DNA of 32,000 bases from an uncultured Chloroflexia bacterium (GTDB taxonomy: Bacteria; Chloroflexota; Anaerolineae; Anaerolineales; Anaerolineaceae). The position numbers were made by a program, and so were the translations under genes. Positions 2,895 through 19,460 of this stretch are shown here, one piece after another (the first letter of the stretch is position 1; every line of letters starts with the position of its first letter). The stretch is taken from NCBI GenBank assembly GCA_963704755.1, contig OY969938.1, positions 3,930,001 through 3,962,000 on the forward strand, given 5' to 3'. The notes under the pieces were generated by a model. That model made no database searches and was not told the origin of the DNA. It was given only the letters and a program-made list of their open reading frames with translations.

Positions 2895-4547
2895 TTAGCT
2901 TTTTCCACCCCCGATTTTGTCCAGGTGCGATTCCCCCAGGTAACCGGTTTCGGCCAGGGCTTTCAGCACCGCCTCTTCGCTGTTGGGACGCAGGCTGACG
3001 ATAGTAGTGGTGATCTCTTCGAGGATGTAACGTGCAGCGCGGGTCTTGCGCAATGCAGCCAATACGTCGGGCGATTTGACCCGCAGCAGGGTTGCCTGTT
3101 CCACCTGGGCCTGGGAGCCGTCTTTTTCCCAGCGCTTGAGCGCCTGGAGCAGCAGCGGCGGCAATGGATCCGGGTCGTTTTTTTGCAGTAAAGCGATCAG
3201 GTGGGCCGGTTTGAGCTGTTGGCTGCGTGCTCGCGCCAGGGCGGGTGGGGTGATGCGGTAACGATATTCTTCGCCCGAGCCGGGCAGCCATTCACCGAAA
3301 CGAGCCAGTTGGTAGCGCACGGCCCGCGAGGCCAGGCGTGGGACGATCAGCAGCCCGTCCGAGCTGACCCGCACCGGCGCGTCCTCGACAGCCAGGCCGG
3401 AAGGCGCTTTGCCGGCCAGCAGGTCGTCTGCCCAGGCGGAGGGGCGCAAGGCGCACGGCGCTGCACCGGCCTCAGGCGCGGCCAGGTCCAGGATGCCCAG
3501 CCAGTGCAGCGGCCCGCACAAGATTGAGCGTAATAAAGCCCCCTCGACCGCGTCCCAACTGGCGAAGCCACGCAGATACTCATCGCTGCCCAGGGGGTGA
3601 ATGAACCAGGAATCGTAATCGCCGGCCGGGCGTTGGAAATCGGGCTGTTGTTCTTTGACATCGGCGATGAAGGCTTCCAGCGACCACCAGGTATGCGGCG
3701 GCAGCGGGGCCAGCATCTCCAGCACTGTGCGGCGGGTTTGCAAGGGATTGTTGACCCATTGGCCCTCGAACGCCAACCCAGGCAAAAGGCGCAGGTCGTT
3801 GTAAGCCTCGGAGTCGAGCCAGGCCCGCGCTAGCAGGGCCAGGGCAGCCTCTCGCGGAGATTCCAGAAACTCGCGTACCGGGTCGAGCCGGGGCAGGCCG
3901 CGGCTGTCCAGTAAGCCGGCGGCGAAGAGCAGGCTGCTCAATTCGGTCACCGAGATGCGCCACTCACGGCTGGGGAGCTGCTCGTCGGCCAGTCCCAGGC
4001 GGCGGCCGGCCAGCAGGGTGCAGGCGTGGTCGAGGATCCGGTCGTCCGCGGGGATCTCCAGGACAATTTCCCCGTCCGGAGCCGGCTGACCGTAGAGATT
4101 GATTCCGGCCGAGGCGGGCAGATGGATCAGCGCGAGCAGATCGTCGGGGATGTAAGCGTATTCCTGCGGTTCGGGCGGCAGGTTGAGGAAGGCCTGGCCG
4201 ATCAAGCCCCGGTACCAGAGCGTTTCGGTCGGGGAGGCCGGGTAGAGGTCCGGGCGCTCGCGGTCACGGCGGGCGGCGCCCATGACACGCACTTCGCCGT
4301 AGCGCCGGGAGAACAGCGGCCATGGCAGGTGGCCTTCATTGCTGACCAGGTCGTGCAAGGCCCGTAAAGCAGCGGCCGGCAGCGATTCGACCACTTCCTC
4401 GACTACCCCTCCATTGAGAATCCCCTTGACCAGCCCGGGCAAAGCCGTGGAGGCGTCCGGGGCGGTTACTTCGATACCCCATAGCCCGGCCGTCATCTTC
4501 AAAAAGCCGAAATCTTTACCATGCAGGGTATGTTCCAGGTCGGGCAT
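2895..4547 (-). CDS. Hypothetical protein; C-terminal half resembles XPB/Ssl2-N-terminal-type helicase-associated repeats
   Basis: A 550-aa uninterrupted ORF with an ATG start and coding-like composition. The tentative domain call rests on segments such as YRITPPALARARSQQLKPAHLIALLQK...LLLQALKRWEKDG. No catalytic motif was seen. Confidence 0.6.
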   Translation of the reverse strand: MPDLEHTLHGKDFGFLKMTAGLWGIEVTAPDASTALPGLVKGILNGGVVEEVVESLPAAALRALHDLVSNEGHLPWPLFSRRYGEVRVMGAARRDRERPDLYPASPTETLWYRGLIGQAFLNLPPEPQEYAYIPDDLLALIHLPASAGINLYGQPAPDGEIVLEIPADDRILDHACTLLAGRRLGLADEQLPSREWRISVTELSSLLFAAGLLDSRGLPRLDPVREFLESPREAALALLARAWLDSEAYNDLRLLPGLAFEGQWVNNPLQTRRTVLEMLAPLPPHTWWSLEAFIADVKEQQPDFQRPAGDYDSWFIHPLGSDEYLRGFASWDAVEGALLRSILCGPLHWLGILDLAAPEAGAAPCALRPSAWADDLLAGKAPSGLAVEDAPVRVSSDGLLIVPRLASRAVRYQLARFGEWLPGSGEEYRYRITPPALARARSQQLKPAHLIALLQKNDPDPLPPLLLQALKRWEKDGSQAQVEQATLLRVKSPDVLAALRKTRAARYILEEITTTIVSLRPNSEEAVLKALAETGYLGESHLDKIGGGKS

Positions 4548-4854: not shown

Positions 4855-5712
4855 TTAAAGGGTGAGGTTTTCGAAATCAACGGGGCTGAGGTAGCCCAAA
4901 GTAGAGTGTAGTCGTTGGCGATTGTACCAAACCTCCAGGTATTCAAAAATGGTCGTGCGAGCCAAGGTACGGGTAAGAAATGGACCCGTAACGCATTCGG
5001 TTTTCAGAGTGCCAAAGAAACTCTCCATGACCGCATTGTCGTAACAGTTGCCAGCCCCGCTCATACTCAGTTGGGCCAGAGCTTCGGTCAAGCAGGAGCG
5101 GTAGGCAGCGCTGGTGTACTGGCTGCCCTGATCGGAGTGGTGCAGCAGGCCAGCCGGTGGATGACGTCCCAGGAGGGCCATACGCAAAGCTGTTTCTACC
5201 AAGGCGGTGTCCATCTTCTGGCTCATCGACCACCCAATCACTTTGCGGGAGAACAAGTCCAAGACCACGGCCAGATACAACCAGCCTTCTCCGGTCTCGA
5301 TGTAGGTAAAATCACTGACCCATTTCTGGTTGGGGGCAGAGGCGGAGAAGTCCTGGTTCAGCCGGTTGGGGGCAGGAATCGCCCCTGGCTGGCGGTGGGT
5401 GGTCACTGGACGGTACTTGCGCCTTGCAAGGGCTGCGATCCCATGCAAACGCATCAGGCGTGCCACCCGATTATGCCCACACACTACCCCTTTTCGCCGC
5501 AGAACCACGTACACACGCGGGCTGCCATATGTTTTCCGGCTGCGCTCATGCTCTGCTGTAATCAGCTCCAGCAGAGCCTGGTTGGCTTGTTCCCGCGTGC
5601 TGGGCGTTCGTTTCCGCCAGGCGTAATACCCACTGCGCTTCACACTCAGCATCCGGCACATCCGCTTGATCTGAAATTGCTCTTCGTGGGCAGCCATAAA
5701 CGTGTACTTCAT
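4855..5712 (-). CDS. IS3-family transposase OrfB (DDE/rve integrase core)
   Basis: A 285-aa protein: MCRMLSVKRSGYYAWRKR..., HSDQGSQYTS, and YDNAVMESFFGTLKTE...YNRQRLHSTLGYLSP, which is the typical IS3 DD(35)E region. Confidence 0.92.
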   Translation of the reverse strand: MKYTFMAAHEEQFQIKRMCRMLSVKRSGYYAWRKRTPSTREQANQALLELITAEHERSRKTYGSPRVYVVLRRKGVVCGHNRVARLMRLHGIAALARRKYRPVTTHRQPGAIPAPNRLNQDFSASAPNQKWVSDFTYIETGEGWLYLAVVLDLFSRKVIGWSMSQKMDTALVETALRMALLGRHPPAGLLHHSDQGSQYTSAAYRSCLTEALAQLSMSGAGNCYDNAVMESFFGTLKTECVTGPFLTRTLARTTIFEYLEVWYNRQRLHSTLGYLSPVDFENLTL

Positions 5713-6017
5713 CCGCCTTTCCGGGAGAAAATGTTGACTACTTTTTTTAGGATCTCTCGCTCTTCGGCTATCTCCTTCAGCTCCCGTTGCAAACGCACAA
5801 TCTCCCTTTTGGCCGCTTCTAAATCACTCGGTACCAGCTTCGGCTCCTGGTTCTCTGGCAACACCACCTCGTATCGATCCCGCCACTTTAGCAACATCCC
5901 TGGCGTTATCCCCAGTTCCCGCTCAAGCTGTCCTGCACTCTTCCCGCTGCTTTTCAGCAGCTCTAACGCTTCCCGCTTGAACTCATCGGTGTATTCTCGA
6001 TATTTCTTGTCACTCAT
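5709..6017 (-). CDS. IS3-family transposase OrfA (HTH)
   Basis: MSDKKYREYTDEFKREALELL...GITPGMLLKWRDRY followed by a leucine-zipper-like tail. I prefer the ATG at 6017 over the track start at 6047. The stop overlaps the orfB ATG. Confidence 0.85.
   Translation of the reverse strand: MSDKKYREYTDEFKREALELLKSSGKSAGQLERELGITPGMLLKWRDRYEVVLPENQEPKLVPSDLEAAKREIVRLQRELKEIAEEREILKKVVNIFSRKGG
5742..5748 (-). other. Programmed -1 ribosomal frameshift site (A AAA AAA) giving the OrfAB transposase
   Basis: There is a T7 run on the plus strand, which is cuA AAA AAA gua in the orfA frame. A -1 slip reads KKSSQHFLPERR and continues in frame into MKYTFMAAH of orfB. Confidence 0.7.
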
Positions 6018-6089
6018 GACCTTCCTCCGTTCCCTTTTACTGTACATCTCTCACCCTTCATTCGTGTCTACTGATTCGGGGAAAGGTCA

Positions 6090-6750: not shown

Positions 6751-6759
6751 TGTTATAAT
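6751..6759 (+). promoter_or_regulatory. Extended -10 promoter element (TGtTATAAT) for the 6795 operon
   Basis: It matches TGnTATAAT exactly, 36 nt upstream of the ATG at 6795. No good -35 element is present. Confidence 0.4.
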
Positions 6760-6794: not shown

Positions 6795-7610
6795 ATGGCA
6801 TTAAAGGGTAACCTGCGGGATTTCTCCTTTACCCAATTGCTCAATCTAATCAACCTGGCGAATAAAACCGGCATCCTGATCGTCGATGGACCAGGAGAAG
6901 TGGCTCAGGTTAATTTTCGCGACGGAAAACTGTCCTACGCCCAAATTGGCAAAGAGGACTGTGATCTCGCGTCGGTTCTCTTGCGTTGCCGGAAAATCAC
7001 CAAAAACCAGGCCAAGGTCATCCACGAACGCACCCGCCAGATGAGCGACAAAGAAGTTGGGCTGCTGTTGATCAACGCCGGCTACCTGACTCAACGCGAT
7101 ATCCTCGACAGCGTCTCGCAGTATTGTAGCGATATCGTCCGCAAGCTTTTTACCTGGGTGGAAGGGTTTTTTCGCTTCGAACAGGGGATTGAGGCGCCCA
7201 ACGGCAAAATCCCGGTGCGGATCGACCTGGAAAACCTGATCATCGAGGGGTCACGCCAGTTACGTGAATGGGAACAACTCCAGGAGGAAATTCCCAGCCT
7301 GGATATGTCGTTAAAATTCGTGGAGCGCCCGGGCGCGGACTTGCGCAACCTGCATCTCAGCCTGGAGGAATGGCGGGTGGTGCGTTATGTGGACCCCAAG
7401 AATACCATGCGCCAGATTGCCCACACTACGAAAATGAACGATCTGGAAATCCGCCGGATCGCATATTCCCTGCTGCAGGCCGGCCTGGTCGAGATAATTC
7501 GCCCGGGCGGTGCCCCGTTGGCGCCTATTAGCCGGGCGTTCCCAACGGCCAACAAAGACGAGCAACGCTCTCTGGTCAATCGTTTGATTAGCCGGATCCG
7601 CTCCATCTAA
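6795..7610 (+). CDS. DUF4388 (PATAN-like) domain protein with C-terminal winged-helix-like segment
   Basis: The N-terminus LKGNLRDFSFTQLLNLINLANKTGILIV matches the DUF4388 signature (G-L-x-x-F-x-L-x-x-LL-x-L...KTG-x-L). The C-terminus LSLEEWRVVRYVDPKNTMRQIAHTTKMNDLEIRRIAYSLLQAGLVEI looks like a DUF742/MarR-type wHTH. Confidence 0.7.
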   Translation: MALKGNLRDFSFTQLLNLINLANKTGILIVDGPGEVAQVNFRDGKLSYAQIGKEDCDLASVLLRCRKITKNQAKVIHERTRQMSDKEVGLLLINAGYLTQRDILDSVSQYCSDIVRKLFTWVEGFFRFEQGIEAPNGKIPVRIDLENLIIEGSRQLREWEQLQEEIPSLDMSLKFVERPGADLRNLHLSLEEWRVVRYVDPKNTMRQIAHTTKMNDLEIRRIAYSLLQAGLVEIIRPGGAPLAPISRAFPTANKDEQRSLVNRLISRIRSI

Positions 7611-7631
7611 CTTGGGCTCAAAGGACGACCG

Positions 7632-8165
7632 ATGCAAACCGTCAAAATCGTTGTAACTGGACCGTTCAATGCCGGAAAAACGAAATTTATTCAATCCGTC
7701 AGCGAAATTGACGTGGTTTCTACCGAACGCAAGATCACCACTCCGGCCGAAAAGGTGAAGAGCAGTACCACTGTGGCCATGGATTTTGGCCGGATCACCG
7801 TCGACGACAACCTGGTGCTGTATTTGTTTGGTACACCTGGCCAGAAGCGATTTGATTTCATGTGGGAAATCTTATCGGAGGGTATGTTGGGTTTCATCGT
7901 CATGGTGGACAGCACCCGGCCCGAGACATTCCGTGAAGCGCGCAGTATTCTGGAGACGTTTCGCGCCTATGCACCCACCCCCTACGTGGTGACCGCCAAC
8001 AAGCAGGACCTGAACGATGCCTGGGATCTCGAAGATATGCGCCTGGCCCTGCGTGTGGACCCGAAAATCAAATTGCTGCCCTGTGTGGCTACCAGCAAGG
8101 AAAATGTCAAAACCGTCCTGTTGGAACTGCTTTACAGCATTCTCGCTGAAATGGAGCGGGGCTAG
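7632..8165 (+). CDS. Small Ras-like GTPase (MglA/CvnD-type 'ATP/GTP-binding protein')
   Basis: A 177-aa protein with G1 GPFNAGKT, G3 LFGTPGQ, G4 NKQD and a G5-like CVATSKE. An AAGGA Shine-Dalgarno lies 7 nt upstream. Confidence 0.85.
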   Translation: MQTVKIVVTGPFNAGKTKFIQSVSEIDVVSTERKITTPAEKVKSSTTVAMDFGRITVDDNLVLYLFGTPGQKRFDFMWEILSEGMLGFIVMVDSTRPETFREARSILETFRAYAPTPYVVTANKQDLNDAWDLEDMRLALRVDPKIKLLPCVATSKENVKTVLLELLYSILAEMERG

Positions 8166-8195
8166 CTCGAACCGCCCGTCAGGATCAAAAAATAC

Positions 8196-9011
8196 GTGTC
8201 TTCGATTACTACCGATCAAGGCAATTTACATTACGAAGTTTACGGCCGGGGCAAGCCGGTGATATTGCTGCACGGCTGGTTGGGTTCATGGGGCTTGTGG
8301 CAGGAGACCATGGCCTATTTGGGCCAGTATTACCGCACCTACGCGCTTGATTTCTGGGGGTTTGGTGAATCGGGTACTCACCTGAATACCTACAAAGTGG
8401 CCGATTTCGTCTCGCTGGTCAACCAGTTCATGGACCAGTTGGGCATTGTCAGCGCACCGCTGGTGGGCCACAGCATGGGTGGGACGGTCAGCCTGGCCGT
8501 GGCCATCCGCTACCCCGAGCGGGTCGAGAAAGTGACCATCATTGGTTCGCCGGTGGTAGGCTCTTCGCTGGCTCCAATGCTCAAGGTGGCCGGTTACCGT
8601 CCGGTGGCCTGGTCGCTGTTCACCTTTTTTTCCTTATTCCGTAAAGCCATGCGGGTGGCCTCGCCGTCCATTTGCCGCGACCCGCGTTTCCCGGATATGA
8701 TGGACCGGGACCTTTCCAGGACCAACCTGGAATCATTCCTGCTCAGTATCGCTTCGCTGCGCCGCACGGATTTGCGCAGCCAGGTGCCGCAAATCAACGT
8801 CCCGGTGATGGGTATGTTCGGTCACCAGGATAATATCGTCAGCCCGAATGAATGGAAAACCTTACAGAAAGGATTGCCGGCAGCGCGAATTGAACGGTTC
8901 GCCCAGGCCGGCCATTTTATAATGTTAGACGAACCGCAAGTTTTTACTCATACTTTGCGTGACTTTTTGAACTCTACTCCAAAAAAGGAATTGATCGTCA
9001 ATGAAAACTGA
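8196..9011 (+). CDS. Alpha/beta-fold hydrolase (intact Ser-Asp-His triad)
   Basis: GTG start. It has an HGW oxyanion region, the nucleophile elbow GHSMGG (Ser codon AGC at 8472-8474), GHQDNIV (acid) and AGHFIMLDEP (His). Confidence 0.85.
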   Translation: MSSITTDQGNLHYEVYGRGKPVILLHGWLGSWGLWQETMAYLGQYYRTYALDFWGFGESGTHLNTYKVADFVSLVNQFMDQLGIVSAPLVGHSMGGTVSLAVAIRYPERVEKVTIIGSPVVGSSLAPMLKVAGYRPVAWSLFTFFSLFRKAMRVASPSICRDPRFPDMMDRDLSRTNLESFLLSIASLRRTDLRSQVPQINVPVMGMFGHQDNIVSPNEWKTLQKGLPAARIERFAQAGHFIMLDEPQVFTHTLRDFLNSTPKKELIVNEN

Positions 9012-9600
9012 CCAGATATATTCGAACCGCGTTACCACTTGCGTGCTGGAAGGGGTCAGGGAGATCATCGGCCCGGAGGAATTGGCCAATGCAGTAGCCA
9101 AATCGGACATGGATCAACTCATGTCGCCGGAGGAAACAACTCTGCGCCTTTCAGCAATCCGGGCGCTGCATTCGATCTTCCTCAACCGGTTTGGTTCACT
9201 GCCCGTGCAGGGCATTGCGCGCCAGTCCGGGCGTTCCTTTTTTAATTATTTCTTGAAATTTTATGGGAAAGAAGCCGGGTTCGAGGAGTTGGAATTCCGT
9301 CTGCTGCCGCCCCGCCAGCGCATTCTGGCCGGGTTGAAGTCGTTGGCGCAGGTGGTTGGCCGCGAGTGCCACTGCCCCGTGGACGTCAGCGAGCAAGAAA
9401 GCAAATGGGTCTGGAAGATGAATTATCTGCCGGGTATCGAAAAGGGGGGCAAGGACCAGTGCCAGTTCACCCAGGGCGTGCTGCAAGGGTATTTGACCTG
9501 GATTAGCGGCGGAAAATATTACCCGGTGGAAGAATGCAACGAAGCCATTGAAGGCCAAACGGCCTTCGTGATCGAAATCGCCCAGCAGCCCATCGATTAG
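9001..9600 (+). CDS. V4R (4-vinyl reductase)-like domain protein
   Basis: The ATG overlaps the upstream gene by 11 nt. The C-terminal CQFTQGVLQGYLTWISGGKYYPVEECNEAIEGQTAFVIEI fits the V4R pattern C-x-F-x2-G-x3-G...E-x2-C-x5-G-x3-(C)-F, with the last Cys replaced by Ala. Confidence 0.55.
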   Translation: MKTDQIYSNRVTTCVLEGVREIIGPEELANAVAKSDMDQLMSPEETTLRLSAIRALHSIFLNRFGSLPVQGIARQSGRSFFNYFLKFYGKEAGFEELEFRLLPPRQRILAGLKSLAQVVGRECHCPVDVSEQESKWVWKMNYLPGIEKGGKDQCQFTQGVLQGYLTWISGGKYYPVEECNEAIEGQTAFVIEIAQQPID

Positions 9601-9612
9601 GCCAGGCAAAGG

Positions 9613-10890
9613 ATGCTCAAGATCATCTTGCAAAGCCCGCGGGTGTTGAAGCCGTTCAACGAGCGGGCGCGCGACTTGCGCATCCTCAACAAACCGTTGT
9701 GGTTGGCTCAGCGCGACGTGCTGGCGCCCTATACCACGCGCGAACTTGAGCTGGCTCCCGCGGCACGGCTTCCGCAAACCCAGGAGCCCTGCCTGGTTTA
9801 CCGGGATAACCTCTATTTCGATGCGGGCTATATTGCGGCCTTCCTGGAAAAGGCCCGCAGCCTGCCGCACGCCTCGCGGGCGGCTTTTTCAGCTGGTGAC
9901 CGGGCTTTCAAGGAGCACTGCCTGCCCCTTTCGGATTCATACGTGCCCTCGGGCGAGGTTTACCTGGCGGATTTATGGTATTACCCGCACGGCCCAACCT
10001 CCAGCGCGGAGCCGCTGGTGATCGACCTGCAGGCACGCGAAATTGGCTATTACCACGTGCCCACCTACATGGCTTACGATGCCGGTGATCTGGTTTATCA
10101 GGTGCCGCTGCGCAGCCTGATCGCGATCAACTCGTGGGTGCACGTGTTTGTGGCCGATACCATCTTTGGCCTGTTCGGGCGCGGCGCGCGCTTCGAGGAC
10201 CGCTTGAATAAGGATCCTTTTTTTAAACTGGGCGTCCTGGGAGCCGCGGTGATGGAGGGCAAGCAGGTATTGGAATGTTCGCGGCTGGTACACGTCGGCC
10301 GCAACTGCTCGATCGACCCTTCGGCGGTCATCCACGGGCCGACCAGCCTGGGCGACAACGTTACGGTTGGAGCCGGGGCGGTGATCGAAAACTGTATCAT
10401 CGGCGATAACGTCAATATTTCGCAGGGCTGCCAGTTGATGATTTCGGTCGTGGGCGACGGTACGTTTTTACCCTTCCGGGCCGCGTTATTTATGACCACA
10501 ATCATGGATAACAGCATGATCGCGCAAAACACCTGCCTGCAGATGTGCGTGATCGGGCGCAACTCCTTTATCGGCGCCGGGACGACGTTTACCGATTACA
10601 ACCTGGTGCCGGTGCCCATCCGCGCCCGCGATGCGAACGGGGAGCTGCGGCCATCCAACCGGCCGGTGCTGGGCGGTTGCGTGGGGCATAACTGCCGCAT
10701 CGGTTCGGGGATGCTGATCTACCCGGCCCGCACGATCGAATCGGACGTGGTTTTGTTTGCCTCCAAAGATCGCCGGGTCATCGACCGGGATGTACATTTC
10801 GAGGAAAGCGATCATCATGCCCTGTCCTCCGGGTATCTGCATCCGCGTCTGTATCCGCGGCCGGGGGAGGGCAGGCCGGAAGAGTGGTGA
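9613..10890 (+). CDS. Left-handed beta-helix (hexapeptide-repeat) protein with degenerate nucleotidyltransferase-like N-domain
   Basis: Residues ~230-390 show successive [LIV]-G-x4 hexapeptide turns (IHGPTSLGDNVTVGAGAVIENCIIGDNVNISQGCQL..., VIGRNSFIGAGT, VGHNCRIGSGMLI). The N-terminal ~200 aa lack a GxGTR-type signature. Confidence 0.7.
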   Translation: MLKIILQSPRVLKPFNERARDLRILNKPLWLAQRDVLAPYTTRELELAPAARLPQTQEPCLVYRDNLYFDAGYIAAFLEKARSLPHASRAAFSAGDRAFKEHCLPLSDSYVPSGEVYLADLWYYPHGPTSSAEPLVIDLQAREIGYYHVPTYMAYDAGDLVYQVPLRSLIAINSWVHVFVADTIFGLFGRGARFEDRLNKDPFFKLGVLGAAVMEGKQVLECSRLVHVGRNCSIDPSAVIHGPTSLGDNVTVGAGAVIENCIIGDNVNISQGCQLMISVVGDGTFLPFRAALFMTTIMDNSMIAQNTCLQMCVIGRNSFIGAGTTFTDYNLVPVPIRARDANGELRPSNRPVLGGCVGHNCRIGSGMLIYPARTIESDVVLFASKDRRVIDRDVHFEESDHHALSSGYLHPRLYPRPGEGRPEEW

Positions 10891-10934: not shown

Positions 10935-11159
10935 ATCAGGGGCCGGTTTCCGGTCTCTGATGATTATCATCCAAGGTAAAGGTAAAGGTACTCCTTTCGA
11001 GTAAGAAACCCGCATTTGAGTGTAGTACCTCAAATGCGAGGGCTCCAAGACATAAGCCTGAAAAGTTGTGATCCAAGTTTATTTAATGCGTTTGGTTGCC
11101 GGGTTCCTATGACGGGAATATTGCCTTAGAAAGCCAGGGGAAATTGCCTTGAAAATGGC

Positions 11160-11189
11160 TTGACAAAAGGTTTCTAATCTCTCTATAAT
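11160..11189 (+). promoter_or_regulatory. Consensus sigma-70-type promoter (TTGACA-18 nt-TATAAT)
   Basis: TTGACA is at 11160-11165 and TATAAT at 11184-11189. Both hexamers are perfect, and the promoter lies 39 nt upstream of the LacI-family ATG. Confidence 0.65.
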
Positions 11190-11191
11190 AA

Positions 11192-11216
11192 AGCAATCGA
11201 TTGCGCAAACGTTTGC
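11192..11216. promoter_or_regulatory. Two adjacent perfect 12-bp palindromes; LacI-family operator candidates
   Basis: GCAATCGATTGC is at 11192-11203 and GCAAACGTTTGC at 11205-11216, immediately downstream of the -10. The second conforms to the LacI/PurR/CcpA-type core (A-A-N-C-G-N-T-T). Confidence 0.65.
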
Positions 11217-11227
11217 TAAAGGCGAAT

Positions 11228-12247
11228 ATGACTTCGATCCCCACAATCCATGATGTTGCCAGATTAGCAGGTGTTTCTACAACCACCGTGTCCCATATCA
11301 TCAACGGGACGCGGTATGTAAGCGATGAGCTAAAGGAACGGGTGGACAAGGCCATTGCCGATTTGGGCTACCGGCCTAACAGCCTGGCCAGGGGGCTGCG
11401 CAGGGGGGAAAGTAAAACCATCGGGTTGATTGTACCGGATAACTCGAACCCATTTTTTGCCGAAATTTTACGCTCTATCGAAAGTATCGGCTATTCCAAC
11501 GGCTATGCGGTAATTCTTTGTAATAGCGATGGCGACATCGAAAAAGAAGTCGCCTATACGGATTTGCTGGTGGCCAAGCAGGTGGACGGCATTGTGTTCA
11601 TCACCACCAACAATTCCTATGAACACTTGCAGCAAATCACGGCTGCTGGGATCCCGATCATCGTCATCGATCGCGATATCCCCCTTAAAGGAACGGATGT
11701 CTTATTGGTCGATAATTTCCAGGGCGGGTATGATGCGACCCGCTATTTGATTAGCCTGGGCCACCGCCGGATCGCCTGTATCACCGGCCCATCCCGGCTC
11801 ACCCCAAGCGCGGATCGGGTCAACGGTTACAAAAAGGCGCTTAATGAGGTAGCCATAGCGGAGATTCCGGGGTATATTGTGGCCGGTGATTTCCAGTTCC
11901 AGGGCGGCGAGAATGGCGTCGAGCAGCTCCTGAGCCTGGACCCGCGCCCGACCGCGATCTTTGCCTGCAACGATATGATGGCCCTGGGGGCCATGCGCGG
12001 ACTGCGTAAAGCCAACCTGGCGATTCCACGGGATATCTCGGTGATCGGTTTTGACGATATTGCCCTCACATCGGTCGTTTCGCCGGCACTTTCGTCGGTC
12101 GCCCAGCCGATCCAAAGGATAAGCGAGCTGGCTTTCGACCTTTTGATCCACCGCATTCAAAAGAAAGATACCGAATTTGAAGATAAGCGCATTGTTTTAC
12201 CCACACAGCTCGTCATTCGTGATTCCTGTAAAAATATCGGAGAGTAA
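11228..12247 (+). CDS. LacI-family transcriptional repressor
   Basis: N-terminal HTH TIHDVARLAGVSTTTVSHIINGTRYVS...YRPNSLARGLR followed by a periplasmic-binding-protein-like sugar-binding core. I chose the ATG at 11228 because the TTG at 11201 lies inside the operator. Confidence 0.9.
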   Translation: MTSIPTIHDVARLAGVSTTTVSHIINGTRYVSDELKERVDKAIADLGYRPNSLARGLRRGESKTIGLIVPDNSNPFFAEILRSIESIGYSNGYAVILCNSDGDIEKEVAYTDLLVAKQVDGIVFITTNNSYEHLQQITAAGIPIIVIDRDIPLKGTDVLLVDNFQGGYDATRYLISLGHRRIACITGPSRLTPSADRVNGYKKALNEVAIAEIPGYIVAGDFQFQGGENGVEQLLSLDPRPTAIFACNDMMALGAMRGLRKANLAIPRDISVIGFDDIALTSVVSPALSSVAQPIQRISELAFDLLIHRIQKKDTEFEDKRIVLPTQLVIRDSCKNIGE

Positions 12248-12250
12248 TTA

Positions 12251-13156
12251 ATGTCGGAAATCGTCGTTCTTGGCAGCCTGAATATGGATTTATCGGTTAA
12301 CGTTCCCAGGATTCCTTTACCAGGCGAAACGATCAGTGGCGGTGGCCTGGCGACCAGCGCAGGGGGTAAAGGAGCCAATCAGGCAGCGGCCTGCGCACGG
12401 CTCGGCAGGCAGGTGACTATGGTGGGGTGCGTGGGAAAGGATGATTTTGGCGCGCGCATTAAAGAGAACCTGTCCGCAATGGGAGTTGATATAACCCATG
12501 TGAATGAAGAAGAAGCTGCCCCCACCGGCACCGCGATGATCTTGATCGATGCCAGGGGGGAGAACTGTATCGTTTTATCGCCAGGGGCCAACCAGTTGGT
12601 CAGGATCGACGCGCATACGGCGGAGTTGATCAAAAACGCAAAATTATTATTGCTCCAATTCGAAATCGCGAGCGAGGTCGTCTTCGAGGCGATCGAAATT
12701 GCTAACCGGGCAGGGGTTACAGTGTTATTGAATCCGGCTCCTGCGATCCCCTTACCGGACGATATATACAAAAAAGTAGATTATTTGATCCCCAACGAGG
12801 TCGAAGCTTTTCAGTTGACCGGTGTTCAGGTCACCGACCTCTCTTCTGCGCAAAAAGCAGCCCAAATATTGTTGGGGCACGGCACCCCGACGGTGATTAT
12901 TACCCTGGGAGCGGAAGGCGCATTACTGGCTACATCCGAGCGGATGGTCCATATCCCCGGGCTAAAAATCGACGCGGTTGACACCACCGGGGCAGGCGAT
13001 GCCTTTATCGGTGGATTTGCATCCGCTTTGTTGGAAGGAGAGGGGATCGATTATGCCCTCAAGATTGCTTCGACGGCTGGAGCCCTGGCAGCCATGCATA
13101 CCGGCGCTCAATCCAGCCTGCCGACTCGTCAGGAAGTCATTGCATTCCTGAAATAA
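12251..13156 (+). CDS. rbsK: Ribokinase (PfkB family)
   Basis: VVLGSLNMD, GGKGANQA and the DTTGAGDAF anion-hole/catalytic motif. The gene starts 3 nt after the lacI-family stop. Confidence 0.85.
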   Translation: MSEIVVLGSLNMDLSVNVPRIPLPGETISGGGLATSAGGKGANQAAACARLGRQVTMVGCVGKDDFGARIKENLSAMGVDITHVNEEEAAPTGTAMILIDARGENCIVLSPGANQLVRIDAHTAELIKNAKLLLLQFEIASEVVFEAIEIANRAGVTVLLNPAPAIPLPDDIYKKVDYLIPNEVEAFQLTGVQVTDLSSAQKAAQILLGHGTPTVIITLGAEGALLATSERMVHIPGLKIDAVDTTGAGDAFIGGFASALLEGEGIDYALKIASTAGALAAMHTGAQSSLPTRQEVIAFLK

Positions 13157-13240
13157 TAACGGAATTCCCGGGAGGTGCCATTCGAAAACAGACCTTCTAT
13201 CGTTCGTTCTGCAACTCATTATTTTCCTAAGGAGATAAAA

Positions 13241-14260
13241 ATGAAGAAGACGATTTTTGCAATACTTGCTGCAGTTCTCGTAGTTAGCCTTATAGGCTGT
13301 TCTTCTGCAGCCCCAACGCAAAAGACTCAGAAGGTGGTCTATCTGATCAACGGCGCGTTGGGCGATAATGCCTTTTACGATTCGGGCCAAAAAGGCATCG
13401 ATAAGCTGGCGAAAGATTATGGCGCCGAAACCCGCACGATCGAGGCTAATTTTGACGCCGGCCAGTACGAACCTGCGCTGGAAGCGGCCGTAAATTATGC
13501 CGATGTTATTTTCGTGATCTCCTACGGTTTCGAAGATCAATTGAAAGAATATGCCGATAAATACCCCGATAAAGTCTTTGTCAACCTGGATACCGTCGTC
13601 CAGAATGATAAAAATACAATCACCTCGGTCGATTTCATCGAGGAAGAATCCGCCTACCTGGCCGGGGTTGCGGCTGCTTACGCCACCACGGACACCAGCC
13701 TGGCCAACATCAACCCCGATAAGATGATCGGCGTTGTGGCCGGCGATTCCGACCCGGTTACCGAGGCCTTCATTTTTGCCTATACAAACGGGGCAAAATC
13801 GGTTGACCCCGCTATCGACGTCGAGACAAAATACATCAATAGCTGGGACGACACCGCCAAAGCCAAACAGGCGACCTTGCAGCTCTTCGATATGGGCGCC
13901 GACGTCGTCTTCCAGGTCGCTTCGGCGGCCGGTATGGGTGTCTTGCAGGCTGCCGGCGAGCGCGGATTGTACGCCATTGGTGCCGACACCAACCAGAACG
14001 ACCTCGTCCCCGGCCATGTCATTGCCAGCGATATCAAAGACGTCGGCCAGGCGATCTATGAGGTTTATCAAACCATCCAGGATAACACCTACAAACCCGG
14101 CGAGACCCTGCAATATGGCCTGGCCAAAGGTGGCGTGGACATCGATATGAGCGCAACCGCTCCGGTGCTCTCGCAGGACATTCAGGATAAGGTCAATGCG
14201 GTCCGCCAGGATATCATCGACGGCAAGGTAAAAATCGAACTGTATACAACCGCCGGCTAA
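13241..14260 (+). CDS. BMP-family (Med/PnrA/NupN-like) ABC transporter substrate-binding lipoprotein
   Basis: AAGGAG Shine-Dalgarno at 13229-13234. The signal peptide has a lipobox (LIGC). GALGDNAFYDSGQKGI is typical of the BMP family. Confidence 0.85.
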   Translation: MKKTIFAILAAVLVVSLIGCSSAAPTQKTQKVVYLINGALGDNAFYDSGQKGIDKLAKDYGAETRTIEANFDAGQYEPALEAAVNYADVIFVISYGFEDQLKEYADKYPDKVFVNLDTVVQNDKNTITSVDFIEEESAYLAGVAAAYATTDTSLANINPDKMIGVVAGDSDPVTEAFIFAYTNGAKSVDPAIDVETKYINSWDDTAKAKQATLQLFDMGADVVFQVASAAGMGVLQAAGERGLYAIGADTNQNDLVPGHVIASDIKDVGQAIYEVYQTIQDNTYKPGETLQYGLAKGGVDIDMSATAPVLSQDIQDKVNAVRQDIIDGKVKIELYTTAG

Positions 14261-14275
14261 TATCCCTATGCTGGC

Positions 14276-14314
14276 GCCGTTATGGGGCCCAATGTCTGCG
14301 GGCCCCATAACGGC
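14276..14314 (+). promoter_or_regulatory. Stable intra-operon stem-loop after the binding-protein gene
   Basis: gccgttatggggccc / gggccccataacggc forms a perfect 15-bp stem with a 9-nt loop, 16 nt after the stop at 14260. There is no U-tract. Confidence 0.6.
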
Positions 14315-14358
14315 AAGTATTCCTGAATTCATCGGACCTGCTATTTATTTAAAAATTG

Positions 14359-14411
14359 CCGAATTTGAGGTATATGCGGGGGCATCGCCCCCGCATATAC
14401 CTCAAATTCGG
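14359..14411. repeat. Long perfect palindrome (25-bp arms), member of the ccgaatYtgaggt...acctcaRattcgg family
   Basis: ccgaatttgaggtatatgcgggggc atc gcccccgcatatacctcaaattcgg. The outer arms are shared with 19656-19708 and 30021-30070. Confidence 0.9.
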
Positions 14412-14518
14412 GGTTCTCAGTTCTTATCACGCCAAGCCGCCAAAGAATAAAAAAATCATCCGTGGGATCCGGATGGATCGCGTCAGGTTGAAAAACCGGG
14501 GCGCAGGAGTCCCAATAT

Positions 14519-16063
14519 ATGGAAACCCTTATCGAAATGAAAGATATCGTCAAAGTTTTCCCGCCCAACGTGGTTGCTTTAGACGATGTCACAACCGATT
14601 TCCGCAAAGGTGAGATACACGCCATTGTTGGTGAAAATGGCGCCGGAAAAAGCACCCTGATGAAGGTGCTTTACGGCCTGGAATCGAAAAACGGTGGAGA
14701 AATTTTCTTTCATGGACAGCCTGTACATTATAAAGACCCTGGAGAAGCCATTGCGGCCGGGATCGGCATGGTGCACCAGGAGATTCTGCTCATCCAGGAA
14801 TATACGATCTGGCAAAACATTGTATTGGGCATCGAGCCGGTCGGGATTTTTGGCACGATAAACCAGGCTCAAGCCCGCCGCGCGGTCCAGGAAAAAATAG
14901 CTGAATTTAAGTTCAACCTGAATCCGGATGATTTGGTCCAGGATATTTCTGTGGCAGCCAGGCAAAAGGTTGAGATTCTTAAGCTGCTTTATCGCAACGT
15001 GGAAATTTTGATTCTGGACGAGCCGACCGCCGTGTTGACCCCACAAGAAATTCCGCAATTATTTTCTGAGTTACAACGTCTGCGCAATTCGGGAAAGACG
15101 ATTTTGTTTATTTCGCACCACCTGGACGAAGTGCTTACCCTCAGCGACCGGATCACCGTGATGCGTAAAGGCAAAAAGGTCGCGACCGTCGAAACGAGCC
15201 AAACCAATAAAGAAGACCTGGCCAAAATGATGGTTGGGCGGAATGTGCTTTTTCTTTCACAACGCGATCAGAAGCAGCCTGGTCCGGTTGTCTTTTCAGT
15301 CGAAAACTTGAACTATACCGATGGGAATCAGCACAAACGATTGGACGATGTGAACCTGCGGGTCCGCTCTGGCGAAATCGTAGGTATCGCCGGTGTGGAA
15401 GGGAACGGCCAATTGGAGCTGGTGAATTGCATTATGGGCCTGGCTCAGCCAACCTCTGGCAAGATGTTGGTGCAAGAAAAAGATTTAACCAAAGCAGAGA
15501 TTTTGGAGCGGCGCAAATCGATCTCGTTCGTATCCCAGGATCGCAGCAAAATGAGCGCGTCGGTCAAGGCCTCGATCACCGATAATGTGATGATGACCCA
15601 CCACCGCTTGAATAAACACTTCACCCGCTGGAACGGCCTGATCCTGGATTATCAATATTCTCGCCAGTTCACCCGCGATATCGAGCAGCAATTCAATGTC
15701 AGTATGGGGTCGATCGACAATCCCTTCAAATCGCTTTCAGGCGGGAACCAGCAAAAAGTAATTTTGGGCCGTGAATTATTACTGGACACGCCCTTTTTAT
15801 TGTTGGACCAGCCTACCCGCGGCCTGGACGTCGGTTCTATCGAATACGTCCACGAACTGATCTTGAAAATGCGCGCTCAAGACCGCGCGATCCTCTTGAT
15901 TTCTGCCGACCTGGAAGAATTGTTTCGCATTTCAGACCGGATTGTGGTGATGCATCGCGGCAAGATCGTAGCCGACCTTTCCACCGAGAAAACCGACGTG
16001 GACCAGGTTGGCTACTTGATGCTGGAAGGAAAGGACAAAGAAAATGCGAATGAAATTCGTTAA
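14519..16063 (+). CDS. ABC transporter ATP-binding protein, duplicated NBD (sugar/nucleoside type, NupO/RbsA-like)
   Basis: Walker [10 protein letters not shown], Walker B ILILDEPT, a second NBD with LSGGNQQKV and [11 protein letters not shown], and a degenerate second P-loop GVEGNGQ as in this family. AGGAG lies 9 nt upstream. Confidence 0.9.
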
Positions 16064-17081
16064 CGGGGTCGTGGGGATCCTGGTAGCGCTGCTCATTGGC
16101 GCAGGAATCATGCTCGTCCAGGGATTCAACCCGATCGCGACCTATGGGGCCTTATTCAATTATTCATTAGGCGGCTTGTATCCCCTGGCTTCTACTTTAC
16201 GTAATTCGGTCCCGCTTATTCTCACCGGGCTGTCCGCGTCGGTGGCTTTTGCCTCGGGCCCGGTCAACCTGGGGCAGCCCGGGCAGTTCCTGATCGGTGC
16301 TTTATTCGCCACCGTCGGCGGGCTGTACCTGCACCTTCCGGCCGTGCTCATGATCCCGGTCCTGATCATCCTGGCCATGATCGGCGGGGCGCTCTGGTCG
16401 GGTATCGCCGGCTTGATGCGCAGGTGGTTCTCGATGGATGAGTTCATCACCACCCTGATGCTGAATATCATCGCGGATTTGTTCACTTACTGGGCCATCT
16501 CGTACCCCTTCTTCGACCAAACCGCCTACTCACCGATGACCCCCCAGATCGATAAAGCCGGCTGGCTGCCCGAATTTGGTGATTTCAATACCAACGTGAT
16601 CGTGATGGTGTTGGCCTTTGCGGCCGCATGGTTCATTATTTCGCGCATGACCGCCGGCTACGAATGGCGATTGACCGGCCAGAACTCGATTTTCGCCCGC
16701 CTGGGCGGCTGCAAAATCGATAAGAATTACATGACCGTCATGCTTTTTACCGGCGCTTTGGCCGGATTGGCCGGTGGTTTGATCGTCATGGCGGGGCCGC
16801 ATCGTTTTATCAAAGATATTGGGGCGAACTACGCCTGGGATGGGGTCATGATCGCCATGGTCGCGAATAACGGTCTGATCGGCACGCTCTTATATGGATT
16901 ATTCTTCAGTTCCTTGCAATCAGGTTCGCTGGGCATGGAACTCATCACCGCTGTTCCCAGCGAATTTATCTCGGTGCTGCAGGCGGTCATCGTTTTGGTC
17001 ATCGTGGCCGGGCGGGGCACGTTGGAGATTCTGCTCGACAGGAGCCTGGTTAAGCGTAAAGCAAGGGAGCGGGTAGCATGA
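16044..17081 (+). CDS. ABC transporter permease (NupP/RbsC-like)
   Basis: A 345-aa polytopic hydrophobic protein. It overlaps the ATPase gene by 20 nt. Confidence 0.85.
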
Positions 17082-17968
17082 ATGTCTTCGTTGGATTGAT
17101 TAATGGCATGATCTCCGGAGCGACTCCCATTTTGCTGGCTGCGCTGGGCGGCACATTCACCTTCTATGCGGGCATATTCAACATCGCCATGGAAGGGATG
17201 ATGCTGGGTGGGGCTTTCTTTGGGGTGCTCGGTTCTTACTACTTCCATTCCTGGCCGATGGGCATTCTTTGCGCGATTCTGGGCGCCCTCTTCATGGCTT
17301 TGATCTTCATTCTTTTCGCGGTCGTATTGAAAACCGACGAATTCGTCACCGGCATAGCCTTGAACCTGTTCGCCGTCGGCGCGACCACTTACATGCTCCG
17401 CCAGATTTTCAGTGTAAAAGGAGCCTTTTCCAGCCCGGATATCATCCCGATCCCTTCGATTACGATTCCGTTTCTCGATAAAGTGCCGGTTTTGGGCGAT
17501 GTGTTGAGCGGGCAGAACTTATTGGTGTACATCACGGTCCTGATGGTATTGGTCTCGGCTTTTGTGATCTTCAAGACAAAATTCGGTTTGCGCTTGCGCG
17601 CCGCCGGATATAACGCGCCCAGCCTGGATTCGAGCGGGGTCAAGACGGCTTCGATTCGCATCTGGTCGCTGGTGATCTGCGGGGTATTGTGCGGGCTGGC
17701 CGGGGCGTATCTCTCCCTGGGCTACGTGACCCTGTTTTCCGAGAATATGTCCGCCGGCCGGGGCTGGATATCCCTGGCGGCGGTGATTTTGGTGAATGGC
17801 AACCCGTGGGGCATAGCCCTTATCTCCCTGCTCTTCGGGTTTACCGATGGCCTGGGTTTGCTGCTGCAAAAATTCTTCCCCTCGCAATTCACCGGCATGG
17901 TGCCTTACCTGGCCACCCTGGTTTCTTTGTACTTCTACTCAATTCAAAAAAGGAAGAAACTGATATGA
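17078..17968 (+). CDS. ABC transporter permease (NupQ-like)
   Basis: A 296-aa polytopic hydrophobic protein, with an ATGA overlap with the previous gene. Confidence 0.85.
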
Positions 17969-19338
17969 AAAAAGCCTGGCAAATGGAACGAGAATTACGG
18001 GACGCGGCCGTCCCGCTGGATCGGCGCACCCATTCTTCGAACTGGTACGACAGCAGTTTCGAGGTGCCTTACGGGGATGCCTTGATGAACATGTTCTGGA
18101 ATTCACGCGTACCCGGGTCGGATGCCCCCGAGATCCCTTACCTGGAAATGGCTCAGGCAGCCTATAACAAAGGCCTGGATACCTCGGCCGCCATGGAATT
18201 GATCCCGACCGGGATCAAACTGGCACAGGAAGGCAAAATCAATGAATTGCGGGCGATCACGGCCGAGATTCTGGAAACGCTCAATAGCGCGCCGGTCGAT
18301 CCGCAGCACCCGTTCCACAGCTACCAACATCCCGCCGCCTGGGAAGACGTCAAGGCGGCTATGGGTACGGTGCAGGAAACAGCCATTTCTTTCGATAATT
18401 CAAATTTGGGCGAGCGGATTTACCAGGGCTGGCTGGGCCAGTTGGCCGGCGGCTCTTTTGGCACGGCCATCGAAGGGTATACCGGGGAACAAATTGCCAA
18501 AGTGTATGGTGAAATCCGCGCCTACATCACCGAGCCCGAAACGACCAACGATGACGTGGTGTACGAGCTGGTCCTGCTGGACGTTTTCGAACGGCTGGGC
18601 CGAAAATTAACTTCCCGTGCCCTGGGCCTGGAATGGGTCAAGCAGATCCAGTTCGGTTGGTCGGCCGAATGGGTGGCCTTGCGCAATCTCAACCAGGGCA
18701 TTTTTCCGCCCGAATCTGGATCCTTCCAAAACCCGTATTCCAACTGGATCGGGGCCCAGATGCGTGGAATGGTGTGTGGCATGCTGGCGCCCGGCTGGCC
18801 GATGGAAGCTGCCCGGCTGGCGCATATCGATGGCGTCATCAGCCACGACAATAATGGCGTGTATGGCGAGATGTTTGCGGCGGTGATGACTTCTCTGGCG
18901 TTTGTCTATTCCGATCCGCGTGAAATTTTACAGGCTGCGGCGGAATATGTTCCCCAGAAAAGCCTGTACGCTGCGGTGCTGCGCGATTGCCTGGCGGTCG
19001 TCAGCCACGAAAGTAACCCGGCCGCTGCCTGGAAGATTCTCGAGAAGCACTATGAAGAATATAACTGGATCGATGCCCATCCCAACATCGCGGCCGTGAT
19101 TTATTCCCTCTGGTATAGCCAGAAGGACATGACCGAATGCTTCTCGCTGCTGGCAAAGGCCGGCCTGGATGTGGATTGTAACGGCGGCCTGGCCGGGAAC
19201 GTTCTTGGGGTGATCCGGCCGGTTCCGGCAAAGTGGGCAGACCCTTTAGGCGATTTGCTGGAGACCTATTTGAAAGGCAAAGAAAAGATATCGATCCGCG
19301 AACTGGCTTCGCGAACGACAAAGATGGCTGTGCAATAA
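17965..19338 (+). CDS. ADP-ribosylglycohydrolase-family protein with ~150-aa N-terminal extension
   Basis: The ATG at 17965 overlaps the permease stop (ATGA). It has an ARH-like [14 protein letters not shown] (canonical G-x-a-x-GDA-x-G-x-x-x-E) and C-terminal [16 protein letters not shown] (canonical D-x-D-[TC]-x-[AG]). The track ORF start at 17689 is rejected because it lies inside the permease. Confidence 0.75.
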
Positions 19339-19345
19339 AAAGTTG

Positions 19346-19455
19346 GTAACTGCTCAGCCACCGCAAAAGAGAGGGGTGTTTTTAAGGTTTTTCGCGTGCA
19401 TCGCACGCGAAAAACCTTAAAGCACCCCTAATTTCCGACCTGCCTGAGGAGTTAC
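19346..19455. repeat. MITE-like element: 12-bp terminal inverted repeats around a long palindrome
   Basis: The left end is gtaactgctcag (19346-19357). The right end is ctgaggagttac (19444-19455), matching 11/12 as reverse complement. The internal palindrome at 19372-19429 has the perfect core aaggtttttcgcgtgc atc gcacgcgaaaaacctt. Confidence 0.75.
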
Positions 19456-19460
19456 AAATG

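Follow-up and report, generated by a model that had tools for sequence, protein, structure and literature searches.

Beyond Myxococcus and the actinobacterial conservons, the small Ras-like GTPases of bacteria are almost unstudied. Within the MglA family of these proteins, the sequence GTPGQ together with a TT pair defines Groups 2-5, and a canonical [NT]KxD motif sets Group 5 apart from Groups 2 and 3 (PMC4316618). Typically, an MglB (Roadblock) gene lies within four genes of the GTPase gene, but this association is not obligatory (PMC4316618). The linkage of the PATAN domain (DUF4388) with MglB dates to Makarova et al. 2006, as cited in bioRxiv 10.1101/2021.06.11.447907 and PMC4316618, and the pairing of PATAN with MglA Group 5 was catalogued in 2014, including Anaerolinea ANT_06780 and Chloroflexus Cagg_2798 and Caur_0665 (Wuichet & Sogaard-Andersen, PMC4316618, table S2). 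The survey took in no neighbours other than PATAN and MglB, and its authors considered the Group 5 neighbourhoods too variable to interpret. The subject of the present analysis is a cluster of five genes, denoted g1-g5, in a 32-kb window (the whole stretch of DNA that was analysed, 32,000 nucleotides) from an Anaerolineae genome. The cluster encodes, side by side, a PATAN protein and a GTPase that is of the Group 5 type by its motifs, followed by an alpha/beta-hydrolase, a divergent V4R protein and a protein with a pseudo-nucleotidyltransferase (NT) and a left-handed beta-helix (LbH). With moderate confidence, g1-g5 can be regarded as the remnant, at this locus, of a larger signalling cluster that is conserved among Anaerolineae and organized around a small G protein, with Roadblock probably acting elsewhere.

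The pair formed by g1 and g2 resembles the catalogued Chloroflexi pairs of PATAN and MglA Group 5 in its GTPase motifs (GTPGQ, TT and NKxD), in the GTPase length of 177-179 amino acids and in the adjacency of the PATAN gene. It differs from them in two features that the 2014 survey does not describe: the extension of the cluster by hydrolase, V4R, NT/LbH, dehydrogenase, response regulator (RR) and histidine kinase (HK) genes, and the DUF742-like tail of the PATAN protein. An earlier note on this DNA considered the combination of genes uncharacterized; the pair was already on record, whereas the extended cluster was not found described in the searchable literature. The five genes are the following:

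6795-7610, + strand: g1, PATAN (DUF4388) protein with a winged helix-turn-helix (wHTH), 271 amino acids
7632-8165, + strand: g2, MglA-family GTPase (as classified by sequence), 177 amino acids
8196-9011, + strand: g3, alpha/beta-hydrolase, 271 amino acids
9001-9600, + strand: g4, divergent V4R protein (as classified by sequence), 199 amino acids
9613-10890, + strand: g5, protein with a probable pseudo-nucleotidyltransferase domain and LbH, 425 amino acids

The list of open reading frames (ORFs) gives junctions of 21, 30, -11 and 12 nucleotides between these same-strand genes, exactly as first noted, and the same gene order recurs across many genomes, which is not a matter of chance.

The GTPase and its PATAN partner

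The protein encoded by g2 matches ATP_bind_1, Ras and Arf in Pfam and TIGR00231 in NCBIfam, and its sequence matches in PDB include Asgard Arf and MglA. The G1 (GPFNAGKT), G3 (GTPGQ) and G4 (NKQD, within ANKQD) motifs named in the earlier note can be read directly in the sequence, along with the TT of G2 (within TTVAMDFG). The intrinsic arginine finger of Group 1 is missing, with threonine found instead in G2, and in G3 threonine takes the place of aspartate. By these motifs, g2 is an MglA-family GTPase of the Group 5 type, because it lacks the Group 1 arginine finger, carries the GTPGQ of Groups 2-5 and has a canonical G4. The family is tightly conserved: TTVAMDFGR and LFGTPGQ are invariant in 31 of the 31 Anaerolineae GTPase sequences, and 91 alignment positions are at least 95% conserved across the 31 loci. 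The GTPases of the Anaerolineae genome loci are 71-86% identical to g2, and the best 120 homologues listed, several of them named as Anaerolineae, are 85-94% identical.

Scanning one genome per GTDB species yielded 80 loci, which were mapped by tblastn, ORF clustering and family hidden Markov models; individual loci, from this and other searches, are cited below by L numbers. The PATAN gene lies directly 5' of the GTPase gene in all 33 Anaerolineae loci, and in Thermanaerothrix daxensis the identical five-gene order is embedded in unrelated flanks.

Residues 4-160 of g1 match the PATAN/DUF4388 model of Pfam, now named PatA_N (PF14332; E 2.4e-24, 86.1 bits against a cut-off of 25). The wHTH is detected through weak Pfam matches at 195-233 and through matches of the family profile to MarR-type wHTH structures over positions 175-261 (E 1.7e-5); a single-sequence structure model of g1 was unusable, with a predicted local distance difference test score (pLDDT) of 37.6. 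When the C-terminal region of g1, i.e. the wHTH and the last helix, was compared by hhalign with an alignment of DUF742 (CvnC) proteins built from conservon loci, it aligned with the last 75 positions with a probability of 89% (E 2.4e-6), compared with 0.2% for the reversed DUF742 alignment and 0.1-0.2% for the Roadblock and V4R profiles. The two families have in common an amphipathic motif located exactly at the C-terminus: the PATAN partners end in ...SLVNRLISRIRSI or ...SLMLRLIAGVRGL, the former being the conserved C-terminal helix of g1, with the shared pattern LxRLIxxIRxL-COOH, and the DUF742 proteins end in ...LLERVLSGLRRL-COOH. No match of g1 to Pfam DUF742 (PF05331) was obtained. A relationship between the C-terminal module of g1 and DUF742/CvnC is probable rather than proven, and the DUF742-like wHTH tail claimed for the DUF4388 protein is borne out to this extent, below the Pfam threshold. 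No description of the DUF742-like nature of this tail was found in the searchable literature.

This likeness matters because MfpC, a DUF742 protein, has been reported as the exchange factor (GEF) of the conservon GTPase MfpB, and MfpD, a Roadblock protein, as its GTPase-activating protein (GAP) (PMC11343762; PMC13015309; PMC12236503). According to a 2026 preprint, mfpC occurs exclusively in Actinobacteria (PMC13015309). By sequence, g1 is a candidate exchange factor or adaptor of the GTPase. The gene order is Roadblock-PATAN-GTPase in Aquificales (L036, L045) and in a clade of Actinomycetota (L037-L039, L042-L044, L046), and Roadblock-GTPase-PATAN in the cyanobacterium L055; in classical conservons, it is CvnA-Roadblock-DUF742-GTPase, so the PATAN protein sits in the CvnC slot. 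The core of the Anaerolineae cluster is evolutionarily the same cassette as the Roadblock-PATAN-GTPase array of the other phyla and parallels CvnB-CvnC-CvnD. Some of the Actinomycetota homologues of the PATAN partner are greatly extended, to 595 and 1,130 amino acids (L037 4593-7985; L039 6201-7988), by acidic linkers of low complexity that separate the wHTH from the conserved terminal helix, and the L037 homologue is preceded by three tandem Roadblock genes.

The PATAN domain of g1 contains an alpha-helical insertion (approximately residues 53-115) that is shorter in the Aquificales homologues. Residues 54-111 weakly resemble the N-domains (GspE_N/MshEN-type) of PilB, PilF and MshE, with E values of 0.013-0.024 that lie below significance, and this likeness recalls the PATAN-PilB1 interaction reported in Synechocystis. 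The locus could, then, encode a regulator of cell polarity or type IV pili of the MglA kind, in which the GTPase would position a motility or filament-growth machine and PATAN would contact the pilus ATPase. Apart from the insertion and the PilB1 precedent, this reading draws on the frequent location of MglA/MglB homologues near PATAN genes (bioRxiv 10.1101/2021.06.11.447907) and on the control of polarity by Group 1 MglA (PMC4316618). However, neither the window nor the conserved neighbourhood contains pilus or motility genes, the conserved neighbours encode sensor and kinase proteins, and g2 lacks the arginine finger of the polarity-controlling group. We regard this possibility as very improbable; as a statement on the output, it would be compatible with the remnant-cluster model. 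The MglA-MglB-RomR/RomX system of Myxococcus and Thermus resembles the window locus in its Ras-like switch, which belongs to the same family and has Roadblock for a GAP, and in the PATAN proteins that are often encoded nearby. It differs in that its Group 1 MglA has the intrinsic arginine finger and TVPGQ, its GEF RomR/RomX is unrelated to g1, and its output is motility polarity, of which there is no sign at the window locus.

Roadblock genes in related clusters

No Roadblock gene was detected in the 32-kb window by tblastn (best E 0.12) or by hmmsearch, and the observation in the earlier note that no separate Roadblock, DUF742 or CvnA gene stands beside the GTPase is correct. In this respect, g2 resembles the Anaerolinea Group 5 entry, a GTPase that is an 'orphan' with respect to MglB, and differs both from the typical MglA-family coupling and from its relatives in L029, L034, L085 and L090. 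In L029 and L034, which are basal Anaerolineae, the order is PATAN-GTPase-Roadblock(-V4R), and homologues of this type of Roadblock are abundant and highly conserved in Chloroflexota metagenomes, the matches listed being at least 76% identical. L085 has PATAN-GTPase-Roadblock-V4R-LbH-dehydrogenase-RR-HK, and L090 has PATAN-GTPase-Roadblock-hydrolase-V4R-LbH-RR-HK, with 80% identity to the window in the GTPase, 47% in the hydrolase and 52% in the LbH protein. L034, L085 and L090 represent full or near-full Anaerolineae clusters with Roadblock. In its fullest form, the cluster consists of a PATAN/DUF742-like protein, the Group 5 MglA GTPase, Roadblock, hydrolase, V4R, NT/LbH, optionally a dehydrogenase, a regulator with REC and a degenerate GGDEF, and a multi-GAF/PAS histidine kinase.

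The window arrangement is a derived state in which Roadblock is gone from the cluster. A crude neighbour-joining tree of the GTPases, with the Roadblock-linked forms basal and the hydrolase-type, V4R-only and bare forms nested, is consistent with such a loss. When GTPases that have a Roadblock in cis are compared with those that lack one, identity is 85-87% in the switch I-switch II segment (residues 44-96) and 71-77% overall, which is consistent with Roadblock acting in trans. For Anaerolinea thermophila, ANT_06780 (179 amino acids) is listed as an MglA Group 5 protein encoded beside PATAN and ANT_03760 as an orphan MglB encoded elsewhere; the two are the only Anaerolinea entries in table S2 of the survey (PMC4316618). 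This orphan MglB makes a Roadblock in trans plausible for the window lineage.

The earlier note had proposed a different solution, a non-canonical, Roadblock-free switch in which the DUF4388, V4R and/or LbH proteins supply the GAP, GEF and effector functions and the hydrolase may sense a ligand or serve in the output. In the form weighed here, any of the PATAN, V4R, LbH or hydrolase proteins of the operon would have assumed the GAP role and perhaps also that of the GEF. The absence of Roadblock from the window fits this proposal, as does its absence within 8 kb of every listed hydrolase-type locus, and the hydrolase gene comes right after the GTPase gene, in the slot that Roadblock occupies in L085. 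Some of the folds are suggestive as well: V4R is the fold of TRAPPC3, a subunit of a eukaryotic Rab exchange factor (PMC10933270), and NT+LbH is the fold of the gamma and epsilon subunits of eIF2B. The comparison with relatives nevertheless weakens the proposal. Roadblock adjoins the pair in L029, L034 and L085 and is also adjacent in Aquificales, Actinomycetota and cyanobacteria, so that it largely is the conserved partner elsewhere. L090 has Roadblock together with the counterparts of g3-g5, hence the three proteins are additions, not substitutes; conversely, there are clusters that lack all three extra genes (L006, L026). Furthermore, Roadblock and V4R genes also occur as conserved stand-alone pairs, the single MglA-family GTPase of A. 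thermophila is accompanied by exactly one orphan MglB, and the switch regions are unchanged between the cluster types. Taken with these points, a Roadblock-independent switch appears unlikely. The narrower idea that the hydrolase replaced Roadblock, which was prompted by the position of Roadblock in L085, was ruled out by L090, where both are present.

Roadblock-V4R-REC/GGDEF-like trios also stand alone, in L086 (8001-10209), L088 (7001-9120) and L089 (7001-8968), and tie V4R and the response regulator to Roadblock. These trios have no PATAN or GTPase gene nearby and lie in different surroundings, one of them inside a ribosomal-protein region. Their occurrence suggests that these three genes form a sub-module of the system that is mobile.

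The hydrolase, V4R and LbH proteins and the two-component genes

The genes that follow the GTPase were counted in the 24 of the 33 Anaerolineae loci that have at least 3.8 kb of downstream sequence:

hydrolase-V4R-LbH: 14 of 24 loci
hydrolase-LbH: 2 of 24 loci
hydrolase only: 1 of 24 loci
V4R only: 3 of 24 loci
Roadblock-V4R, with or without LbH: 2 of 24 loci
none of these genes: 2 of 24 loci

Conservation of the neighbourhood thus holds without exception for the PATAN-GTPase pair and for a majority of loci in the case of the g3-g5 trio; none of the flanking proteins was assigned to a housekeeping family.

The alpha/beta-hydrolase predicted in the earlier note is readily recognized in g3 (Abhydrolase_1 in Pfam, E 1.6e-33, 116.9 bits). 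Its Ser-Asp-His triad (GHSMGG ... D ... H) is intact and is invariant in 16 orthologues, and the closest solved relatives among the PDB sequence matches are generic esterases, C-C hydrolases and lactonases. Alpha/beta-hydrolases also act as signalling partners in RsbQ-RsbP of Bacillus and D14/KAI2 of plants. The resemblance of the window locus to these systems is by analogy only: a hydrolase with an intact triad is encoded in a signalling operon beside a ligand-binding sensor, and a dead paralogue is coupled to REC. A specific kinship of g3 with RsbQ or D14 was considered and dropped, no such kinship being seen among the PDB sequence matches, the best of which are generic enzymes.

Taken alone, the g4 protein of the window has no match in Pfam, NCBIfam or PDB sequences, and a word-index search for homologues returned only three database proteins. 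The V4R assignment made in the earlier note is recovered through the family: 15 of the 20 positional orthologues match Pfam V4R (PF02830; best E 2.1e-10), and the family profile matches the V4R sensor domains of PoxR, MopR and MJ1460 with E values of 0.005-0.12. The orthologues keep a zinc site of the form CPxC...CC...C...C. By family-level sequence comparison, g4 is a divergent V4R protein with a ligand-binding fold of the PoxR/MopR type that is related to TRAPPC3. The co-occurrence of V4R, Roadblock and a small GTPase is shared with TRAPP, where TRAPPC3/Bet3 and longin/roadblock subunits act on Rab, and with its Asgard counterparts (PMC10933270; PMC2253512). In bacteria, the link takes the form of conserved gene adjacency (L034, L085 and L090; Roadblock-V4R in L086, L088 and L089). 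Unlike the TRAPP subunit, the bacterial V4R looks like a PoxR-type ligand sensor and is likened to TRAPP through gene adjacency; the homology is at the level of the fold, and the GTPase belongs to the MglA family, not to the Rab family. Podar et al. 2008 (PMC2253512) make no mention of a linkage of V4R to a GTPase or Roadblock, nor was a conserved bacterial V4R-Roadblock-small GTPase adjacency found described in the searchable literature; this linkage is the newest aspect of the locus family.

The C-terminal half of g5, from about residue 220, is a Hexapep/LbH domain (Hexapep, 57.4 bits in Pfam). The 220 N-terminal residues have no sequence match, even when searched as a profile against PDB or Pfam, and none of the 39 g5 homologues matches the NTP_transferase models. 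The NT fold claimed for this part is therefore seen only in structure: an AlphaFold2 model built with the 39 homologues (pLDDT 92.9; predicted template modelling score 0.93; regular beta-helix at 226-347) has whole-length Foldseek matches to ST0452, GMPPA/GMPPB, VTC1/KJC, GlmU and an eIF2B subunit (E 2.8e-15 to 1e-7; template modelling score ~0.5). The two-domain architecture is common to non-catalytic proteins (GMPPA, KONJAC, eIF2B gamma/epsilon) and enzymes (ST0452, GlmU), but unlike these NT+LbH proteins, g5 has an N-domain without detectable sequence similarity or the Gly-rich nucleotide loop. The Gly-rich G-x-G-x-R loop that active nucleotidyltransferases carry is missing from the family consensus, MLKIILxxPRxIxPFNEPARDL, and g5 is, for this reason, probably a pseudo-enzyme or a ligand-binding scaffold. 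Against PADLOC, none of the five proteins gave a match, and a reading of the locus as an anti-phage defence system was dropped on this ground.

Two-component genes lie further downstream. In relatives, a REC/GGDEF-like regulator or a multi-GAF/PAS histidine kinase is found downstream in 14 of the 20 loci whose downstream sequence extends for 7 kb or more; in most relatives, the RR gene directly follows the LbH or dehydrogenase gene, with a Shikimate_DH-like dehydrogenase often located between LbH and the regulator. In the window, these genes and their companions are the following:

19788-20678, + strand: response regulator with REC and a degenerate GGDEF (GGDSF), assigned by Pfam, motif and synteny
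20706-27064, + strand: multi-GAF/PAS histidine kinase (Pfam), in two overlapping ORFs, 20706-23432 and 23057-27064
27106-27495, + strand: stand-alone REC protein directly after the kinase (Pfam Response_reg, E 2e-30)
27492-28280, + strand: g3 paralogue, a probable pseudo-hydrolase (32% identity, E 2e-31), whose start codon overlaps the REC stop codon

An inserted sugar-utilization block of ~8 kb (11201-19338) separates g5 from the RR gene, the distance from the g5 stop to the RR start being 8.9 kb. It encodes a LacI-type regulator, a PfkB/ribokinase, a Bmp-type ABC transporter (binding protein, ATPase and two permeases) and an ADP-ribosylglycohydrolase; the relatives lack this block. The two kinase ORFs are in different frames and overlap by 376 nucleotides, where relatives have one very long gene (>2,200 amino acids in L090); a frameshift, a pseudogene or an error in sequencing could lie behind the split. 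Every RR orthologue has a degenerate GGDEF motif (GGDSF, GGDNF, GGDDF) and there is no I-site, which makes synthesis of cyclic di-GMP unlikely. A cyclic di-GMP circuit, in which the RR product would be sensed by the MshEN-like insertion of PATAN, was rejected as the main model on the same grounds and because the MshEN similarity is weak. The 450-nucleotide gap 5' of the RR gene contains three perfect palindromes (19381-19421, 19459-19519 and 19656-19708), with arms of 19, 29 and 25 nucleotides and 3-nucleotide loops; two of them have the core GTTTGCGGTG in common. They look like repetitive extragenic palindromic (REP) or miniature inverted-repeat transposable element (MITE) repeats, or stacked terminators.

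In the g3 paralogue, the nucleophilic serine is replaced by glycine (GHGLGG), and this protein is a probable pseudo-hydrolase tied to the two-component system. The presence of a catalytic g3 and a dead paralogue in the same signalling neighbourhood speaks for g3 as a part of the signalling system and against a stray enzyme of metabolism. This bears on the possibility that the PATAN-GTPase pair is the sole functional unit and that g3-g5 form a separate metabolic or regulatory unit for a small molecule that merely travels alongside. The trio is indeed missing or partial in 10 of the 24 loci, whereas the pair is invariant, and the nature of the three proteins is in keeping with such a role: the hydrolase triad is kept and its closest solved relatives are ordinary enzymes, V4R domains are classic sensors of aromatic ligands, and a dehydrogenase gene is often next. 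Yet the order and the short junctions persist although the GTPases are down to ~75% identical and the flanks differ, and V4R follows the GTPase or Roadblock without the hydrolase and LbH genes in eight loci (L014, L016, L019, L020, L034, L086, L088, L089). Besides the coupling of the pseudo-hydrolase to the REC protein at the level of translation, the missing nucleotidyltransferase loop makes g5 an unlikely pathway enzyme, and no transporter or pathway genes were found in the conserved block. Hitch-hiking of g3-g5 is, all told, unlikely.

Transcription unit, proposed mechanism and implications

The ends of the five-gene cluster are marked by the following elements:

6751-6759, + strand: candidate extended -10 element TGTTATAAT, 36 nucleotides 5' of the g1 start, read from the sequence
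11009-11040, strand not assigned: strong hairpin in the 310-nucleotide gap 3' of g5
11160-11189: perfect sigma-70-type promoter that serves the next gene, a LacI-type regulator

The candidate promoter placed at 6751 in the earlier note corresponds to this extended -10 element, but a sigma-70 consensus scan made no call at 6751-6759, because the -35 is poor. The hairpin is likely the 3' end of the five-gene transcription unit. With a candidate promoter element of their own, a 310-nucleotide gap with a hairpin and a separate promoter for the next gene, g1-g5 plausibly constitute a transcription unit of their own. On the other side, an IS3-family transposase pair on the - strand (4855-6047), with orfA (HTH_Tnp_1, 5709-6047) and orfB (HTH_21 and rve, 4855-5712) in overlapping frames, sits between g1 and a Helicase_C_3-like gene (2895-4547) followed outwards by an aminotransferase gene (1482-2663). 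The latter two are the direct upstream neighbours of the g1 counterpart in several relatives, and the IS3 element may have taken the place of the original upstream region of the operon.

Among the described systems, the conservon (CvnA-CvnB-CvnC-CvnD; MfpE-D-C-B) shares with the Anaerolineae cluster a small MglA-family GTPase, a linked histidine kinase and, in the relatives of the window locus, a Roadblock; in both, the protein between Roadblock and the GTPase has a wHTH and a terminal helix, which in the PATAN partners resembles that of DUF742. The differences are numerous: at its N-terminus the partner has a PATAN domain, the G4 of the GTPase is NKQD, without the Group 2 signatures NxFD (G4) and DAR (G5), the kinase is a soluble multi-GAF/PAS protein at the other end of the cluster (20706-27064 in the window), there is no CvnB Roadblock or CvnA-type kinase immediately upstream, and a regulator with REC and degenerate GGDEF and three extra proteins are added. 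The locus is not a conservon, because CvnA and an adjacent CvnB are missing and the GTPase motifs are those of Group 5 and not of Group 2; probably, it works like one.

Under the remnant-cluster model, g2 would be the switch that cycles between the GDP and GTP states. By homology with MfpC, g1 would bind g2 through its DUF742-like wHTH and terminal helix and promote nucleotide exchange, and its PATAN domain would receive an input or tether partners. Hydrolysis of GTP would be stimulated by a Roadblock protein encoded outside the cluster, probably in trans, like the orphan MglB of A. thermophila. The catalytically competent g3, the ligand-binding g4 and the pseudo-NT/LbH protein g5 would process and sense a small molecule and, as an input, bias the switch, and the GAF/PAS kinase and response regulators would connect it to a phosphorelay.

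Several observations weigh against this model or parts of it. The search for Roadblock in this genome covered the 32-kb window. What was observed is how the genes are arranged, which domains and folds they encode, the state of the motifs, and synteny with its phyletic pattern; from these we infer all protein-protein interactions, the GEF and GAP roles, the sensing of ligands and the output in the cell. In Pfam, the DUF742 relationship stays below threshold: of the nine proteins scanned, one gave a match (E 0.012; 15.9 bits, where the cut-off is 27), and a general likeness among wHTH domains could account for part of the signal. A substantial minority of loci lack the hydrolase, V4R and LbH genes, and g3-g5 may be dispensable or functionally separate. 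The window copy of g4 has diverged strongly, and most of the cysteines of its zinc site are gone (C154 is kept, the last two positions are replaced), and in L001 (2733-3331), a near-identical Logan contig with an identical GTPase, the V4R gene is called as two ORFs of 84 and 115 amino acids; together, the split ORF and the loss of cysteines hint that V4R may be decaying in the window lineage. Finally, given the split kinase ORFs and the inserted ~8-kb block, the coupling of the RR and HK to g1-g5 may be weakened in the window genome.

A more specific scheme, which we consider quite unlikely, is that V4R, Roadblock and the PATAN/DUF742-like protein form a ligand-gated GEF/GAP assembly on the MglA-type GTPase, with the hydrolase and the pseudo-NT protein making or presenting the ligand. 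If true, this would provide a bacterial precedent for the combination of V4R/Bet3, roadblock/longin and a small GTPase in TRAPP and Ragulator, and the exchange module of the conservon CvnC would be ancient and widespread rather than specific to Actinobacteria.

Across a bacterial class, this locus and its relatives delineate a Group 5 system that is stable and testable and has an unusually conserved GTPase. The DUF742-like tail and the shared gene order suggest that the PATAN partners are relatives of the CvnC/MfpC exchange factor, and the conserved linkage of V4R, Roadblock and a small GTPase in bacteria bears on the origin of TRAPP-like regulators.

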